Below, piece after piece: positions 36,928 to 42,883 of a DNA stretch of 64,000 nt; the first letter of the stretch is position 1; every line of letters starts with the position of its first letter. Both the position numbers and the translations under genes were made by a program. The stretch comes from Atribacterota bacterium (GTDB lineage Bacteria; Atribacterota; Phoenicimicrobiia; Phoenicimicrobiales; Stramentimicrobiaceae): assembly GCA_040767965.1 (NCBI GenBank), contig JAXGNR010000007.1, positions 64,001-128,000 of the forward strand, written 5' to 3'. A model generated the notes under the pieces. That model saw nothing but the letters and a program-made list of their open reading frames with translations. It was not told where the DNA came from and did no database searches.

Positions 36928-37362
36928 ATGAGAAAAAACACAAAAAATATCCCTCGGCTTATTATGCAAATCGGACATCATTTAAAGATGCGTTTAAACT
37001 ATAATCTAAGTGAAAATAATCTTACAATTTCCCAGTTTAAAGTATTGGCTTATTTATGGGAACATGATCAACAAAAAATAAACCAAAAACAGATTTACGA
37101 TTTTATAGAAATTAAACCTTCATCTATGACTAAATTAATTAAACTATTAGAAACAAAAAATTTAATCAAAAAAGATATTGATCCGGATGATTCTAGAAAT
37201 ACTGTTATCAGTTTAACAAAAAAAGGAATGGAAATTAAGCAAATCTGTTTAGAAAACATTAAGGAATCAGAGAAAAATTTGCTAAAAGATTTTTCTCAAC
37301 AGGAAATATATACCCTTCTTTCTTTATTATTAAAGATAAAAGATAAAATAGTAATTTTCTAG
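36928..37362 (+). CDS. MarR-family transcriptional regulator
   Basis: LTISQFKVL, QKQI, SMTKLIKLLETKNLI, DPDDSR...LTKKG. Confidence 0.92.
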   Translation: MRKNTKNIPRLIMQIGHHLKMRLNYNLSENNLTISQFKVLAYLWEHDQQKINQKQIYDFIEIKPSSMTKLIKLLETKNLIKKDIDPDDSRNTVISLTKKGMEIKQICLENIKESEKNLLKDFSQQEIYTLLSLLLKIKDKIVIF

Positions 37363-37405
37363 ATATTTATTTAGTGAAAATTTATAGAAGAACAGGAATA
37401 ATCAA

Positions 37406-38806
37406 ATGGATGATAAAAGAATCAAAATTTTACGTGATGAACCACCTGTCAAGGCTATTATTTATTTAGCCTTTCCGACAATACTGGGTATGATTGTACA
37501 GGTCTTTTACAATCTCACAGATACTTTTTTTATTGGGAAACTTAATGATCCACTTCAGGTAGCAGCTATTTCTATAGCCTTTCCTATTTTTATGATGTTG
37601 ATGTCTGTCAGCGGAATGTTTGGTTTCGGAGCATCATCCTATATTTCAAGATTATTGGGTAATAAAGACTATGTTATGGCTAAAAAGACCAGCTCTACGG
37701 CCTTTTATTCTTGTTTATTTGCCAGTGTGTTCACAGCAATAATAGGTTTATTTTTTATATCTCCTATTCTAGTTTTTATCGGAGTTACCAGGGAAACATA
37801 CAATTATGCTTACGATTACCTGTTTGTTATATTCATCAGCAGCAGCGTATTGATGCTAAAATTCTTTTTTGGTAATTTGCTGAGATCCGAGGGTGCTGCA
37901 AAAATATCCATGTTTGGAATGTTTATTGGTACCGGACTTAATATTATTTTAGATCCAATTTTTATATTTGTTTTTAATTATGGAGTTACTGGTGCCGCTA
38001 TTGCCACAGTAATCGGGCAATTAGTATCCCTCATTTATTATCTTTCTTTTTATTGGCAGAAAAAAAGCATAGTTTCAATTAAATGGAAATATTTTACTCC
38101 TAAAAAGGATTTGTATCTGGAAATATTCAGAATAGGCATACCAGCATCCTTAAATAATTTTATGATAAGCATTGCTCAAACTTTAGGAAATTATGTAGCA
38201 GCAGGATATAATGATATGGTAGTAGCTGCTTTTGGAATTAACCATCGAGTTTTTTCTATGGCTATAATGATACTTATAGGACTTTCTGAAGGCACACAAC
38301 CTTTGATTGGATATAGCTATGGTGCTAAAAAAATTCCAAGACTTAATAGTATCATTAAAACAGCAGGTATTATGGCTACCTCCATTTCAATTTTCTTTTT
38401 AATTTTCTTTTATTTTTTTGCAGGAGAAATGATAAAAATTTTCATTAATAATGAACAGGTTGTTGATTACGGGATAAGAATTATGAGAGCCTTGATGATA
38501 TCATTGCCTTTTGCAGGTATTCAATTTCTTATACGGGTCAGCTTTCAATCATTAGGAAAAGGAAGACCAGCTTTGATACTGGCATTATCAAGACAGGGTC
38601 TTTTTTACATTCCTATTTTATTTCTCTTAAATTATTTCTTCGGATTTTCTGGATTCATTTATGCTCAGCCAATTGCAAATATTTTAACATTTATTCTAGC
38701 AACAGTTCTGTTTAAACAAATTAAACTGCAAATAGAAAATGAACATCAGAACTCAACTGTTGAAGCAGTTTCCCCCAAATTGGATGAATCTTTTTCTGAA
38801 GCTTAA
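37406..38806 (+). CDS. MATE-family efflux transporter (MepA-like)
   Basis: YNLTDTFFIG, NIILDPIFIF, GVTGAAIAT, QPLIGYSYGA, RQG; about 12 TMs. Confidence 0.92.
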   Translation: MDDKRIKILRDEPPVKAIIYLAFPTILGMIVQVFYNLTDTFFIGKLNDPLQVAAISIAFPIFMMLMSVSGMFGFGASSYISRLLGNKDYVMAKKTSSTAFYSCLFASVFTAIIGLFFISPILVFIGVTRETYNYAYDYLFVIFISSSVLMLKFFFGNLLRSEGAAKISMFGMFIGTGLNIILDPIFIFVFNYGVTGAAIATVIGQLVSLIYYLSFYWQKKSIVSIKWKYFTPKKDLYLEIFRIGIPASLNNFMISIAQTLGNYVAAGYNDMVVAAFGINHRVFSMAIMILIGLSEGTQPLIGYSYGAKKIPRLNSIIKTAGIMATSISIFFLIFFYFFAGEMIKIFINNEQVVDYGIRIMRALMISLPFAGIQFLIRVSFQSLGKGRPALILALSRQGLFYIPILFLLNYFFGFSGFIYAQPIANILTFILATVLFKQIKLQIENEHQNSTVEAVSPKLDESFSEA

Positions 38807-38917: not shown

Positions 38918-40174
38918 TTAAGGCCAAATCCCTCTAAATCTCATTGCTTCGGCAACTTTTCCGACAGCACTAATATATGCAGCAGTACGGTTATCAATAT
39001 TTTCCTTTTGTGCAATATTTAAAACTTCATTAAAAGCTCTTTCTATTCTTTTTTTCAACCTGCGGGCAACCTTTTCTTCACTCCAGAAATAACCATTAAG
39101 ATTCTGAACCCACTCAAAATATGAAACTACAACACCACCTGAGTTGGCCAAAATATCTGGTATTACAAAAGTTCCTTTTTCTTTTAATATTTCATCTGCT
39201 TCAGGAGTTGTGGGCCCATTTGCTGCTTCAGCAATAATTCTTGCCTTAACATCATGAGCATTATTCTCATCAATAACTTCCTCCAGTGCTGCAGGAACAA
39301 GAATATCACACTCCAATTTCAATAGTTCTTCATTTGTTATCTGCTCAGTACCGTTACTGGAAAAGTCACTTACGGTCCCTGTTTCTTGTTTATGTTTAAG
39401 CAGGGCTACTGGATCCAATCCTTTTTCATTATAAACTCCACCTTTTGAATCACTGACAGCAATTACCTTTAATCCTTTTTCATGCAAAAATTTACCGACA
39501 AAAGATCCTGCATTGCCAAAACCCTGGATTACCACTGTGGCTTTTTCAGGAGAAATGCTTAACCGATCCAGAGATAATAGTATAGTTTGAACTACACTGG
39601 AAGCTGTGGCAGTTACCCTACCTTGAGAACCCCATAACTGGATAGGTTTACCGGTAACTACTGAGAAAGTCGCTTCTCCGCTTAACATATTATAGGTATC
39701 AACATACCAACTCATAACTTTTGAGTTAGTGTAAACGTCGGGAGCAGGCACATCTTTATTAGGACCAATTATAGGGGATATTTCATAAATATATCTTCTG
39801 GATAATCTTTCTAATTCCCCCTCTGACATTTCTTTAGGATTGCAGATAATTCCACCTTTTGCACCACCATAAGGTAAATCTACCACAGCACATTTCCAGG
39901 TCATCCAGGCTGATAAAGCCTTTATTTCATCAAAGCAAACCTGGGGATGATATCTTACTCCACCTTTAGCAGGACCTCGAGCAGTATTATATTGTGCTCT
40001 AAATCCCGTAAAAACCTCTATTTCTCCATTATCCATTTTAACTGGAATTGAGACAGTAAGTACTTTTTCAGTTTTACGCAATTGTTTTTTAAGGTTCTCA
40101 TCGATATTCATTCTGGATAAAGCTTTTTCTAACTGTAAATTAGCTACATCTAATGCACTTTTCTTTTTTTCCAT
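38918..40174 (-). CDS. gdhA: Glutamate dehydrogenase (Glu/Leu/Phe/Val dehydrogenase family)
   Basis: GPAKGGVRYHP, MTWKCAV, GGAKGG, DVPAPDV, VTGKP, QGFGNAG, EAANGP, NSGGVVVSYFEWVQN; ATG 40174 follows an AGGAG SD. Confidence 0.93.
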   Translation of the reverse strand: MEKKKSALDVANLQLEKALSRMNIDENLKKQLRKTEKVLTVSIPVKMDNGEIEVFTGFRAQYNTARGPAKGGVRYHPQVCFDEIKALSAWMTWKCAVVDLPYGGAKGGIICNPKEMSEGELERLSRRYIYEISPIIGPNKDVPAPDVYTNSKVMSWYVDTYNMLSGEATFSVVTGKPIQLWGSQGRVTATASSVVQTILLSLDRLSISPEKATVVIQGFGNAGSFVGKFLHEKGLKVIAVSDSKGGVYNEKGLDPVALLKHKQETGTVSDFSSNGTEQITNEELLKLECDILVPAALEEVIDENNAHDVKARIIAEAANGPTTPEADEILKEKGTFVIPDILANSGGVVVSYFEWVQNLNGYFWSEEKVARRLKKRIERAFNEVLNIAQKENIDNRTAAYISAVGKVAEAMRFRGIWP

Positions 40175-40279
40175 ACTATTCTCCTTTCTTCTGAGTGACA
40201 ATAAATTATTAATTATCATTAAGTTTATTTACAACTATCATTTTTGTAGTAGTAATTTTGTATTACTTATTACACATAC

Positions 40280-40329
40280 AAAAAGCCCGAGAGATAAATT
40301 CTTTAACAGAACCTATCTCTCGGGCTTTT
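40280..40329 (-). terminator. Riboswitch expression-platform terminator overlapping the aptamer 3' end
   Basis: Minus strand AAAAGCCCGAGAGATAGGTTCT-GTTAA-AGAATTTATCTCTCGGGCTTTTT hairpin with U-tract. Confidence 0.88.
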
Positions 40330-40455
40330 ATCCCAAAAGTGTAGCAATTAGTTATTTTGCTTGCACCGCTCGGTCCAGACTTAAACTTTTCCTTATAAGT
40401 TGTTCTATTATTATGATAAATCAAACACTAAAACGGAACCCTAGGTGCACTCCTG
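40307..40455 (-). ncRNA. ykkC-yxkD motif riboswitch aptamer, subtype 2 (ppGpp/PRPP-like), in the gdh leader
   Basis: Minus strand CAGGAGUGCACCUAGGGUUCC...GUCUGGACCGAGCGGUGCA...ACAC...GGGAUAAAAGCCCGAGAGAUAGGUUCUG carries all hallmark ykkC blocks plus a P0 pairing CAGGA/UUCUG. Confidence 0.88.
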
Positions 40456-40483
40456 CTTAAAAACTATATTATCATATCAAAAT

Positions 40484-40512
40484 AGTATATAAAACTAAAT
40501 GTTTTTTGTCAA
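40484..40512 (-). promoter_or_regulatory. Sigma-70 promoter for the riboswitch-gdh transcript
   Basis: TTGACA-N17-TATACT on the minus strand, about 30 nt upstream of the aptamer. Confidence 0.8.
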
Positions 40513-40593
40513 TATTACTTCTTTAACTGCAAAATAGCTTTTTTAGGTTTTTATTTTACACATCATAATAATAATGAATTATTATTGATATTT

Positions 40594-41694
40594 CTAAAAT
40601 AGAAAAACACCATTTTTATAGATCAACTGATTGTCTGCATATATTTCGCCACCATTTTTCATATCAGAAATCAGGTCCCAATGAATGGCAGACAAATTTT
40701 TCCCCCCTGCTTCAGGAAGAGACCTGCCTAAAGCGATATGAACAGTTCCACCTATTTTTTCATCAAAAAGGATATTTTTAGTAAATTTTTGAATGTTATA
40801 ATTAGTTCCAACGGCTATTTCACCAAGAAAACTTGACCCCTCATCTGTAGTTAGTATTTCTTTTAAAAATTCTTCTCCCTTCACCGCAGAAACTTCTACC
40901 ACTTTCCCTTTCTTTAAAGTTAATCTTATATCTTCAACTTCTCTTCCATCATAAATAGCAGGAAAGTTAAAACGAATATTGCCTTCTGCTGAGTCTTCAA
41001 TCGGGCTGGTGAAAACTTCTCCATCAGGAAAATTTTCTTTTCCTGAACAATTTATCCATTTTCTACCTTTGATAGATACCTTTAAGTCAGTACTATGAGA
41101 TATAATTCTAAGTTCTTTTTTTTGGTTAAGAAAATTACAAATACTCTCCTGTTTTCGGTTAATTTCCTGCCAGGCAGTAATTGGATCTATGTCATTTAAA
41201 AGGCAGGCATTGTAAACAAATTCTTCATATTCAGAGAAAGACATATTGGCCTCTTGCGCCACTGCCGGAGTAGGTGAAAGAGTCCCACACCAACGGGCTT
41301 CACCTTTAGCTAAACGCTGAAAAAGTAAATCAATAATTGGTCTTCTCCCCTGTGAATAAGTTTTCATTTTTACAGGCTCAATATTTGCAAAAATCCTGGT
41401 ATTGGAGCTTCCCCAAATAGTTAATATAGTATCTGCAGTTTCATAGCTCTTCTTTAGACTGGCCGGTAAATATTTAATCTGCTCTTCATTTCCAGTTTTT
41501 AATGTTATTTCCTGCAGTTCCTCTTCCAGAAAATGACATTCTGGAAAAGCTTCCATTTTAACAGCTTGCCTGAATATTTCTTTCATTAGTGGATAAGTAG
41601 CTGATTGGCCAAGTATTGTTAATTTATCTCCTCTTTTTAATTCTACTGAATAATTAAGTAAAATATGAGCATGTTTTTCTATAAATTTATCCAT
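40594..41694 (-). CDS. Aminopeptidase, peptidase M29 (AmpS/AmpT) family
   Basis: NFPDGEVFTSP, LGEIAVGTN, LFDEKIGGTVHIALG, SAIHWDL. Confidence 0.93.
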   Translation of the reverse strand: MDKFIEKHAHILLNYSVELKRGDKLTILGQSATYPLMKEIFRQAVKMEAFPECHFLEEELQEITLKTGNEEQIKYLPASLKKSYETADTILTIWGSSNTRIFANIEPVKMKTYSQGRRPIIDLLFQRLAKGEARWCGTLSPTPAVAQEANMSFSEYEEFVYNACLLNDIDPITAWQEINRKQESICNFLNQKKELRIISHSTDLKVSIKGRKWINCSGKENFPDGEVFTSPIEDSAEGNIRFNFPAIYDGREVEDIRLTLKKGKVVEVSAVKGEEFLKEILTTDEGSSFLGEIAVGTNYNIQKFTKNILFDEKIGGTVHIALGRSLPEAGGKNLSAIHWDLISDMKNGGEIYADNQLIYKNGVFLF

Positions 41695-41728
41695 TTTGCC
41701 CCTCTACAGTAAATATTTTTATGGTATT

Positions 41729-42883
41729 TTATATTTTTTTCAACATACCATAAATTTGCTCTGCCCTGGCAGGACAACCGTTAATATTTTCTACTGCATA
41801 GTCCTGCACAATTTTGCATCCACATTGTCCTATACCCACAATGGGAATCCCTTGATTTTTCGCATTTAGCAATTTTTCATTTTCACCTGCCAATAGTTGT
41901 CCCATGGCAATCACGCATTCAGGTGAATATCCTTCACTGGAAAGACGGCGCATAGCAGCTACCATTGCCCCTTTGCAGGAACTGCAAGTACCCTTTTCAA
42001 TAATCTGCATATTGGGTAAATTATATTTGGGTATCCTTGAATTGGATGCATCAATTACCATTTTCTTAATATTTCCTTCAATTGGATTAAGAATTTCAAT
42101 CTCTTCCATATCCGAAGGACCTATTCCTGTTTTACTGGCTATTTCAATATGTTTTACCTCTTTAATGCTATAGCCCAATAGAGAAGCGGAAACCATGTCA
42201 GCGGCTAAAACATTTTCCCCGATTATGATGGTGTCTAGCTGTAGAGGATTTCCTCCAAGCTCCCATTGTAAAGAGCAAATGGTAGCATCAACTATGGTTA
42301 AATCAGGAATAATTAATGTATTTAAATCAACTATACACTGATGTAAATTTAAACGATGAAAGCGATGTTTTTCCTGATCATGAATACATCCTTTAAGGTT
42401 TTTCATCCCAATCGTTACAGTGGTTTCACCGTGAATTTTTAAAATAGGGACATTTATAAAATAATCATACTCAAATATTGGCTGGTATATTTTTACATTT
42501 TTTATCTCTTTGCCCATAGGAATATTCTTATTTACAGTAGGTGTTTTTTTAAAATCAATAATTTTTACTCCATATTTTTGCGCTATTTTATCCATTCCGG
42601 TAACCTGGAAAGCTATCATGGTATTATCACCTGCAGTTGAACTTTCTCCAAGGGCAATTTCAGAGGGGTTAGTTTTTAACACCTGTTTTATTATTTCTTC
42701 AATGACCTGGGGATTAGTTGTTGCACCCGTATCGTTTGTTTTAGCAATCACTAAATTAGGTTTTATTAAAACTTTTTTATTTGGCGGAATAAGATACTTA
42801 ATCCCGCCTAAGTCATCTAATGCAGTTTGAATCATTTCACTTACAGTTTTGTCATGCTGGATAGACACCTTATAGGACTTCAT
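41729..42883 (-). CDS. DUF362 domain protein with C-terminal Cys-rich putative Fe-S domain
   Basis: VLIKPNLV, TTNP, NVPILKIH...TIGMKNLKG; C-terminal CSSC...GQC...GCP. Confidence 0.82.
   Translation of the reverse strand: MKSYKVSIQHDKTVSEMIQTALDDLGGIKYLIPPNKKVLIKPNLVIAKTNDTGATTNPQVIEEIIKQVLKTNPSEIALGESSTAGDNTMIAFQVTGMDKIAQKYGVKIIDFKKTPTVNKNIPMGKEIKNVKIYQPIFEYDYFINVPILKIHGETTVTIGMKNLKGCIHDQEKHRFHRLNLHQCIVDLNTLIIPDLTIVDATICSLQWELGGNPLQLDTIIIGENVLAADMVSASLLGYSIKEVKHIEIASKTGIGPSDMEEIEILNPIEGNIKKMVIDASNSRIPKYNLPNMQIIEKGTCSSCKGAMVAAMRRLSSEGYSPECVIAMGQLLAGENEKLLNAKNQGIPIVGIGQCGCKIVQDYAVENINGCPARAEQIYGMLKKI

Follow-up and report, generated by a model that had tools for sequence, protein, structure and literature searches.

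The closest described relatives of the RNA element considered here are the riboswitches for ppGpp (guanosine tetraphosphate), ykkC subtype 2a, which were reported by Sherlock, Sudarsan & Breaker in 2018 (PMC6003355) and validated for T. oceani ilvE, D. hafniense ilvE, P. fermentans glxB and S. acidophilus (also PMC9881157). In the D. hafniense ilvE riboswitch a terminator competes with helices P3 and P0, as shown experimentally (PMC6003355). The class is described as predominantly Firmicutes; glutamate synthase is one of its published associations, with 15 of the 105 examples in the candidate list of PMC6003355, and carriers of the gltB type usually have a branched-chain amino acid (BCAA) type too. 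Here we describe what is very probably a member of this class in an Atribacterota bacterium (GCA_040767965.1), on the minus strand of a 64,000-nt stretch of contig JAXGNR010000007.1 (positions 64,001 to 128,000, hereafter the window), where it occupies positions 40280-40512 upstream of a glutamate dehydrogenase gene, gdh.

Published work gives several marks by which ykkC subtypes can be told apart. Subtype 2 RNAs have an extra helix, P0, that the guanidine aptamer lacks, and the consensus sequences of subtypes 2a and 2b are each nearly a subset of the other (PMC6031431). Aptamers for phosphoribosyl pyrophosphate (PRPP; subtype 2b) have in the S-turn of P3 a G, G96, that is >97% conserved and pairs with the first C of an ACAC motif; in ppGpp aptamers this position is A, C, U or "not always present", which frees the C for the guanine of the ligand (PMC6031431, Knappenberger et al.). 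Validated binders have an A and an unpaired G before P1, the ACAC, and a linker of 4-5 nt with the consensus (A)NARG (PMC9881157). The region that in the window element holds an insertion (see below) spans 41 to 119 nt in these binders, conserved nucleotides G43/C44 at the P1a/P1b bulge are published as contacting the 3' phosphates in ppGpp aptamers, and closely related 2a aptamers may prefer ppGpp or pppGpp (guanosine pentaphosphate), or bind neither (PMC9881157).

It is highly probable, in our estimation, that the window element is a transcriptional ON riboswitch of ykkC subtype 2a, the (p)ppGpp class, that controls gdh, with the ligand predicted from the sequence. This is also what an initial annotation of the region had proposed, and the sequence, its folding, covariation and comparative context all lend support to subtype, anti-termination ON switching and gdh as the target. 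On the minus strand the 5' to 3' order is promoter, aptamer, intrinsic terminator and gdh, and the interval first given for the element brackets promoter to terminator exactly. The parts, all on the minus strand, are these:

40484..40512, minus strand: sigma-70-type promoter, with -35 TTGACA at 40512-40507, a 17-nt spacer and -10 TATACT at 40489-40484.
40307..40455, minus strand: whole aptamer, 149 nt, a four-way junction of P0 / P1-P1a-P1b / P2 / P3, from the RF00442 match, the minimum free energy (MFE) fold and pair counts.
40451..40455, minus strand: P0 5' strand, CAGGA, of which the final A, together with the unpaired G40450, matches the A and G that contact the 5' phosphates in published ppGpp aptamers (PMC9881157).
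40362..40449, minus strand: P1-P1a-P1b stem-loop of 88 nt that includes two conserved blocks, CUAGGGUUCCG and CUGGACCGAG.
40383-40431, minus strand: lineage-variable distal insertion in P1b, 49 nt relative to RF00442; relatives are shorter there.
40343..40361, minus strand: P2 hairpin, 5 bp AGCAA/UUGCU with a 9-nt loop, from the MFE fold.
40339..40342, minus strand: ACAC junction, invariant in 73 sequences; its first C, C40341, is the predicted Watson-Crick partner of the ligand guanine (PMC6031431, PMC9881157).
40317..40338, minus strand: P3, UUUUGGG/CCCGAGA, 7 bp extended by C40339:G40317, with AUAAAAG as its loop; the helix is uninterrupted and lacks an S-turn bulge, from folds and pair counts.
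40312..40316, minus strand: single-stranded P3-P0 linker, AUAGG, which fits the published 5-nt (A)NARG consensus and its NAGG variant (PMC9881157).
40307..40311, minus strand: P0 3' strand, UUCUG, from pair counts and the MFE fold.
40280..40329, minus strand: intrinsic terminator, a 20-22 bp stem with a 5-nt loop and a UUUUU run, whose 5' arm is built from the 3' strands of P3 and P0 and the linker between them.
38918..40174, minus strand: gdh, 418 aa, the "gdh-1" paralogue, from Pfam, NCBIfam and orthologues.

An Rfam scan at gathering thresholds returned no match anywhere in the window. An E-value scan found RF00442 (Guanidine-I, the former ykkC-yxkD model) at 40455..40315 (-) with 50.0 bits and an E-value of 5.9e-8, covering model positions 1-107 of 107; no other ykkC-type family was reported. 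The covariance-model check suggested with the initial annotation gave a significant, full-length match, although one that lies 13 bits below the gathering score of 63 bits, so that routine annotation would miss the element; it has likely not been annotated so far. In the alignment the P1b loop holds 49 inserted nucleotides, and a non-pair is flagged at the position of the pair that the first C of CACG makes with a G in the guanidine aptamer. A search of the whole genome with RF00442 recovered the window match again (E 5.6e-8) and one further match, of 48.6 bits, on another contig.

The same model was run on 41 genomes, the window's own and 40 relatives, and 82 matches were parsed, with at least one ykkC-type match in 35 of the 41. 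MAFFT was used to align 73 of these; eight matches below 45.5 bits and one purE-associated element were omitted. In these 73 aptamers 84.7% of the cells of the proposed structure are paired, against 77.8 +/- 0.4 in shuffles, and the covariation score is 0.320 against 0.190 (0 of 500 shuffles reached either value); slid registers, as a control, left 29-53% of cells paired. The P0 pairing CAGGA/UUCUG, noticed in the initial annotation, is present and well supported by relatives: 89% of its cells are paired, and four of its five pairs change on both sides, for example to CAGAA/UUCUG, UGGAA/UUCCA and GGGA/UCCC. P1 is paired in 98% of cells with four of six pairs covarying, P1a and P1b are each 100% paired with two of five P1b pairs changing on both sides, and in P3 three of eight pairs do so. 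The conserved core comprises CUAGGGUUCCG, CUGGNCCGAG and GGGAUAAAAGCCC, all invariant in the 73 relatives and recovered in the full-length covariance-model alignment, and the A-G before P1 and the ACAC are invariant as well. Near P1a/P1b the C, G, G, C and C of a conserved CUGGACC block are invariant, and this block is a candidate for the counterpart of the published G43/C44.

Read along the minus strand, the sequence blocks of the window aptamer are GUGCACCUAGGGUUCC, GGACCGAGCGGUGCA, ACAC, GGGAUAAAAGCCC, AUAGG and the two P0 strands. Folded alone, the aptamer adopts as its MFE structure the four-way junction P0/P1-P1a-P1b/P2/P3, in which P0 pairs as (AG)CAGGA with UUCUG(UU) and is followed by one unpaired G, and P1 pairs UGCACC with GGUGCA and continues into P1a and P1b. 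With the downstream sequence included, the MFE fold of the full leader (-61.3 kcal/mol, z -5.2 against shuffles) contains the 22-bp terminator, and P3 and P0 are dissolved; terminator and P3/P0 are thus mutually exclusive. The terminator was also called at 40328..40282, with 20 pairs, 8 of them G-C, and a U run after them (two overlapping calls against 0.1 expected), which together with the full-leader fold bears out the earlier observation that its 5' arm is the 3' end of the aptamer. The spacer from the terminator to gdh is 105 nt and includes a ribosome binding site, GGAG, at 40181-40184.

The promoter named in the initial annotation, TTGACA-17-TATACT, is indeed there and has 11 of 12 consensus positions, ranking first of 10 promoter-like sites within 40100-40700; shuffles of this AT-rich stretch contain 3.4 +/- 1.9, so such sites are commonplace in the region. 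Transcription would start a few nucleotides downstream of the TATACT, which would leave a leader of about 22 nt between the start and P0.

Sequencing evidence for the locus consisted of four runs, all as assembled contigs, and one DNA contig of run X1 (>=90% likeness) has 9 other letters in place of the 51 nt at 40382-40432 in distal P1b; the P1b extension therefore differs among close strains or species.

The window aptamer has the combination of features expected of subtype 2a: P0 with the A and unpaired G, an ACAC with no competing guanine, the AUAGG linker, a mutually exclusive terminator and an amino acid gene context. P3 forms an unbroken 8/8 helix with no bulge, and the G that determines PRPP specificity is therefore absent rather than substituted. 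The first analysis had read an A in its place, just after GCCC-G; an A does lie opposite the first C of ACAC in the Rfam alignment, but a missing S-turn describes the case better than a substitution does. The ACAC block, listed there among the ykkC blocks, is present but is not specific to a subtype, since the presumed guanidine-I tails among the matches listed in a general ykkC scan (UACACGG...GCCCGGGAG) have it too.

Linkage to gdh is consistent across the lineage. The open reading frame downstream of the terminator is the dehydrogenase gene foreseen in the initial annotation, with Pfam matches to ELFV_dehydrog (274 bits) and ELFV_dehydrog_N (195 bits); its nearest NCBIfam model is GdhA_Arch, archaeal-type GdhA, at 578 bits against an equivalog cut-off of 750. 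Orthologues of this gdh-1 (62-100% identity) occur in 15 of the 41 genomes, and 12 of them follow an aptamer in the same orientation; contig ends cut off the remaining three, so that the survey of gdh leaders called for earlier gives 12 of 12 evaluable cases. In one of the contig-end cases, G010, the missing 5' end of gdh-1 was found on another contig, directly behind an aptamer. A second paralogue, gdh-2 (39-44% identity; 41 matches, one of them in the window genome), has an aptamer within 3 kb upstream in 0 of 41 cases. The aptamer lies 130-162 nt from gdh-1 in four of the 12, including the window, and in all of the direct gdh copies the overlap of aptamer and terminator is kept. In the other eight the distance is 1085-1499 nt, and a GAF+ANTAR gene of 233-237 codons stands between. 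A GDH protein search of genome contigs returned, among the matches listed, only proteins of <=55% identity from unrelated phyla.

The arrangement in these eight relatives is uniform. All 8 of 8 loci (G014, G026, G028, G029, G031, G033, G034 and G035; L205-L211 and L213) have in order an aptamer, a terminator, the GAF+ANTAR gene, two small hexaloop hairpins, a strong terminator and gdh-1. One hairpin reads UUCUAC-AAGGGA-GUAGAA and the other GGC-AAAGAA-GCC; each loop has A in first place and G in fourth, and such A1/G4 hexaloop hairpins before gdh are presumably the ANTAR target motif. The GAF domain of the protein is nearest to the GAF domains of PtsP and NifA. To judge by its sequence, the arrangement appears to place a protein antiterminator in series with a riboswitch. 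A tblastn search of the window genome at 1e-10 returned no GAF-ANTAR homologue.

In the mechanism that we propose, transcription would begin at the TTGACA/TATACT promoter and, when no ligand is bound, the 22-bp terminator would form and halt transcription about 105 nt before gdh. During amino acid starvation (p)ppGpp made by the RelA/SpoT enzyme would accumulate and dock in the four-way junction; the window genome has a gene for a RelA/SpoT homologue (RSH; RelA_SpoT 156 bits, in a 725-aa frame). The guanine of the ligand would pair with the first C of ACAC, and three elements would hold its phosphates: the A-G where P0 meets P1, the bulge between P1a and P1b, and the AUAGG linker. Docking would stabilize P3 and P0, and because the strands of these helices make up the 5' arm of the terminator, the terminator could not form; the liganded aptamer would thus act as the anti-terminator, and polymerase would read on into gdh. 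Three parts of this scheme are inferred: which ligand binds, which way the response goes in vivo, and that GDH has a biosynthetic role. A rise in gdh-1 together with gltB, which has its own copy of the switch, would increase both routes to glutamate in amino acid starvation.

That gltB copy is the second type-B aptamer of the window genome, in a sense of type B set out below. It is the further RF00442 match (L002 1501-1626, G000:C8:39790-39915 on the plus strand, 48.6 bits) and lies directly before gltB (GATase_2 578 bits, Glu_syn_central 374 bits), with a terminator overlapping it and a promoter-like TTGACA of its own. The 3' strand of its P3 is CCCAAAG, against CCCGAGA in the window, and all pairs are kept through G/A changes opposite U. 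These two are the only subtype 2a aptamers in the window genome.

The 82 matches sort cleanly by the type of their tail and by their downstream gene:

Type A, tail ACACCGUGGG...CCCCAGCGG, 44 matches: before ilvB 38, ilvD 4, leuA 1, an M20-like peptidase gene 1.
Type B, bulge-free tail ACACUUUYRGG...CCYGRRRG, 31 matches including the window: before GAF-ANTAR genes 10, gdh 5, Peripla_BP_6 (livJ-like) 5, brnQ 4, gltB 1, DctP 1, a class-III aminotransferase 1, an M20-like gene 1, unassigned or at contig ends 3.
Subtype 2b, 5 matches: all before purE.
Truncated, 2 of the 82 parsed matches.

T-box-like leaders, with AGAGAG..GGUG.. and GGGUGGUACCACG motifs, are found in the window genome before both of its acetolactate synthase (ilvB-like) genes, upstream of G000:C5 128968 (-) and G000:C4 129814 (+), where most relatives have type A.

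Only four of the 82 matches reach the Rfam cut-off, at 63.1-65.2 bits: L003, L004 and L006 (from G028, G031 and G035), which are leaders of GAF-ANTAR genes, and L005 (from G034), a brnQ leader. Rfam pipelines would label these four type-B aptamers guanidine-I in spite of their subtype 2a marks; most copies fall below the cut-off and so go unannotated, and RF00442 is the only Rfam model that detects such RNAs.

Two pattern scans addressed wider occurrence. The type-B tail pattern, with one genome per species, occurred in 35 stretches, and for 32 of them the record bears an Atribacterota label or classification, which puts the relatives, and through kinship the window genome, in this phylum. Because the pattern is narrow, this is no proof that bulge-free aptamers are confined to the phylum. 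Two of the type-B aptamers seen are on a 7-kb contig labelled Promethearchaeota (L195), are nearly identical to those of Atribacterota, and in one case stand before a livJ-like gene; a near-identical one lies before a GAF-ANTAR gene on a 2-kb contig labelled Fusobacteriaceae (L190). Both contigs are probably mis-binned Atribacterota DNA. A general ykkC scan for stretches ending in TACAC returned at least 120, which give examples rather than frequencies and mostly have guanidine-I-like tails; among the matches listed none was associated with gdh, and a bulge-free 8/8 P3 with one G-G mismatch was seen before a gltB-like gene in an Armatimonadota metagenome-assembled genome (MAG) and before an ilvB-like gene in a Ca. 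Sysuimicrobiota MAG.

The division into two types raises the question of whether they sense the same molecule. Type-B aptamers could have the same fold and ON mechanism with a shifted ligand preference, so that the lineage would have two separately tuned regulons, with BCAA synthesis under type A and nitrogen assimilation and uptake under type B. The types coexist in one genome (for example G007), differ consistently in P3, P0 and the end of P1, and have kinds of downstream genes that barely overlap, M20-like peptidases excepted. Variation in preference between ppGpp and pppGpp is described for related 2a aptamers (PMC9881157), and in published aptamers an NAGG linker favours ppGpp and a long P1 favours both ligands; the window aptamer has the NAGG form and a GCA end to P1 but also a P1 of 88 nt, features that point both ways. 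Yet types A and B do not differ at any position that the literature names as contacting the ligand, ppGpp aptamers normally vary in whether they have the S-turn nucleotide (PMC6031431), and the split between the types may simply mirror an old duplication. The shortness of the P3 3' strand had been taken at first as a hint of a variant ligand. Its length was correctly seen, being 8 nt against 9 nt in the 2b elements of the lineage, with the equivalent of G96 as the missing nucleotide. The hint itself is weak: all 31 type-B aptamers share the 8-nt strand and bulge-free 8/8 helices precede gltB-like and ilvB-like genes in other phyla, so the short strand has little weight as a sign of a new ligand. 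We regard a shifted preference as improbable. A wider version is that type B is a separate alarmone sensor with its own preference (for pGpp, ppGpp, pppGpp or a related guanine nucleotide), parallel to type A and serving a regulon of gdh, gltB, brnQ, livJ-like genes and the GAF-ANTAR antiterminator, with which it would form a two-input gate on gdh in eight relatives; this seems unlikely, if a shade less so.

Considerably less probable is that the aptamer has decayed and that the leader is now a constitutive or protein-regulated attenuator or terminator. The 49-nt insertion in P1b is unusual, the window copy is the lowest scorer of the direct gdh copies with short P1b, and a GAF-ANTAR protein antiterminator belongs to the same operon in eight relatives. 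However, all conserved core nucleotides of the window aptamer are intact, the insertion sits where validated binders vary from 41 to 119 nt, the window genome gave no GAF-ANTAR homologue in the search mentioned above, and the aptamer-terminator overlap is conserved in every direct gdh copy.

A PRPP riboswitch of subtype 2b, which would have P0, ACAC and the general consensus in common with the window element and a nearly nested consensus sequence, is more doubtful still. The >97% conserved G has no counterpart in the 8/8 P3, in which no nucleotide is bulged, and the downstream gene points to glutamate synthesis and not to purine biosynthesis. A tandem guanine aptamer, often present beside 2b elements, would not fit into the 22 nt that separate P0 from the predicted start. 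True 2b forms exist in the same lineage: the five purE-associated elements of relatives read CCC-AGG-CGG (CCC-AG(G/A)-CGG when the window genome is included), so that the G is kept and the strand has 9 nt against 8 nt. The purE leader of the window genome (G000:C7 ~153800-154220, minus strand) was seen by reading to contain a purine-riboswitch-like aptamer, then a 2b aptamer with CCC-AGA-CGG, then a terminator; RF00442 did not report this 2b aptamer at E <= 0.01.

A guanidine-I riboswitch is hardly credible: RF00442 is the sole ykkC-type match and, among the matches listed, the window tail GCCCGAGAG is one base from the GCCCGGGAG of presumed guanidine-I rows, but the score is well under the family cut-off, the window reads UACACUUUUGGGA..GCCCGAGAG where those rows read UACACGG(A/C)GGGA..GCCCGGGAG (ACUUUU in place of ACGG(A/C), ACUU against ACGR at the pocket, and GAGA in place of GGGA), and the downstream genes are gdh and gltB, not the guanidine detoxification genes that form the usual context of this class. 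The covarying P0 is also lacking in the guanidine aptamer (PMC6031431).

Several points weigh against assigning the window element to subtype 2a and against its proposed role. The covariance-model score does not reach the Rfam gathering threshold, and no model other than the one named for guanidine matches. The structure tested for covariation was derived from the window sequence, which is itself in the alignment, and the relatives are not independent of one another; P2 is only 42% paired in the MAFFT alignment, an artefact of aligning a hairpin of variable length, and was dropped as a test. The P1 3' end is GCA, against the ACA common in pppGpp binders. The two ilvB-like genes of the window genome have the T-box-like leaders and no 2a aptamer, unlike published carriers of the gltB type. 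Contigs from RNA libraries (X16 and X18) cover 39606-39980, inside gdh, and a 32-nt piece only, and leave the leader uncovered. The NCBIfam scores of this GDH are below the equivalog cut-offs, and it may work in the assimilatory or the catabolic direction. A literature search found no binding or transcription data for any Atribacterota aptamer, and the terms "glutamate dehydrogenase" and "gdh" are absent from the main texts of PMC6003355 and PMC9881157, whose supplementary lists of 105 and 101 candidates may hold such cases.

As to precedent, we found no paper that by its title links a ppGpp riboswitch to glutamate dehydrogenase or gdhA, and none whose text has both "Atribacter" and "riboswitch", although published candidate lists may hold gdh cases and Atribacterota examples; work joining ykkC and ANTAR was likewise not found among titles. 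The neighbours of the unit are a MarR-family regulator and a MATE efflux gene, convergent at 36928-38806 (+), and, upstream of gdh and in its orientation, an M29 aminopeptidase and a DUF362 protein at 40594-42883 (-); neither pair shows any sign of belonging to the riboswitch unit.

If the assignment to subtype 2a holds, gdh as a target gene and Atribacterota as a host phylum would be new, while the class itself is known. The (p)ppGpp riboswitch regulon would be extended from glutamate synthase to GDH, the second glutamate route, and to one of two GDH paralogues only. A candidate phylum without genetic tools, represented mostly by MAGs, would prove to use this RNA class widely, and the chain from riboswitch to GAF-ANTAR protein to ANTAR-type hairpins to gdh in the relatives would be a natural cascade worth attention.

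Compared with known systems, the window element resembles the ppGpp riboswitch in its ykkC core, P0, the A-G before P1, an ACAC with a free first C, the 5-nt purine-rich linker and the ON competition of a terminator with P3/P0, and it shares the glutamate-synthesis context through the gltB paralogue. It differs from known members in having gdh downstream, an Atribacterota rather than a Firmicutes host, a P3 without the S-turn bulge and a long P1 (88 nt), and no BCAA gene of its genome carries this aptamer. The PRPP riboswitch, ykkC subtype 2b, reportedly described by Sherlock et al. in 2018 (PMC5912903) with a structure by Knappenberger et al. in the same year (PMC6031431), is alike in fold, P0, ACAC, kind of linker and ON terminator platform, but the window element has neither the S-turn G (G96) nor an adjacent purine aptamer nor purine genes downstream. 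With guanidine-I (RF00442) it shares the P1/P1a/P1b/P2/P3 scaffold and most conserved blocks; it differs in lacking the ACGR and GGGA pocket nucleotides, in its extra P0, in its sub-cut-off score and in an unrelated gene context.

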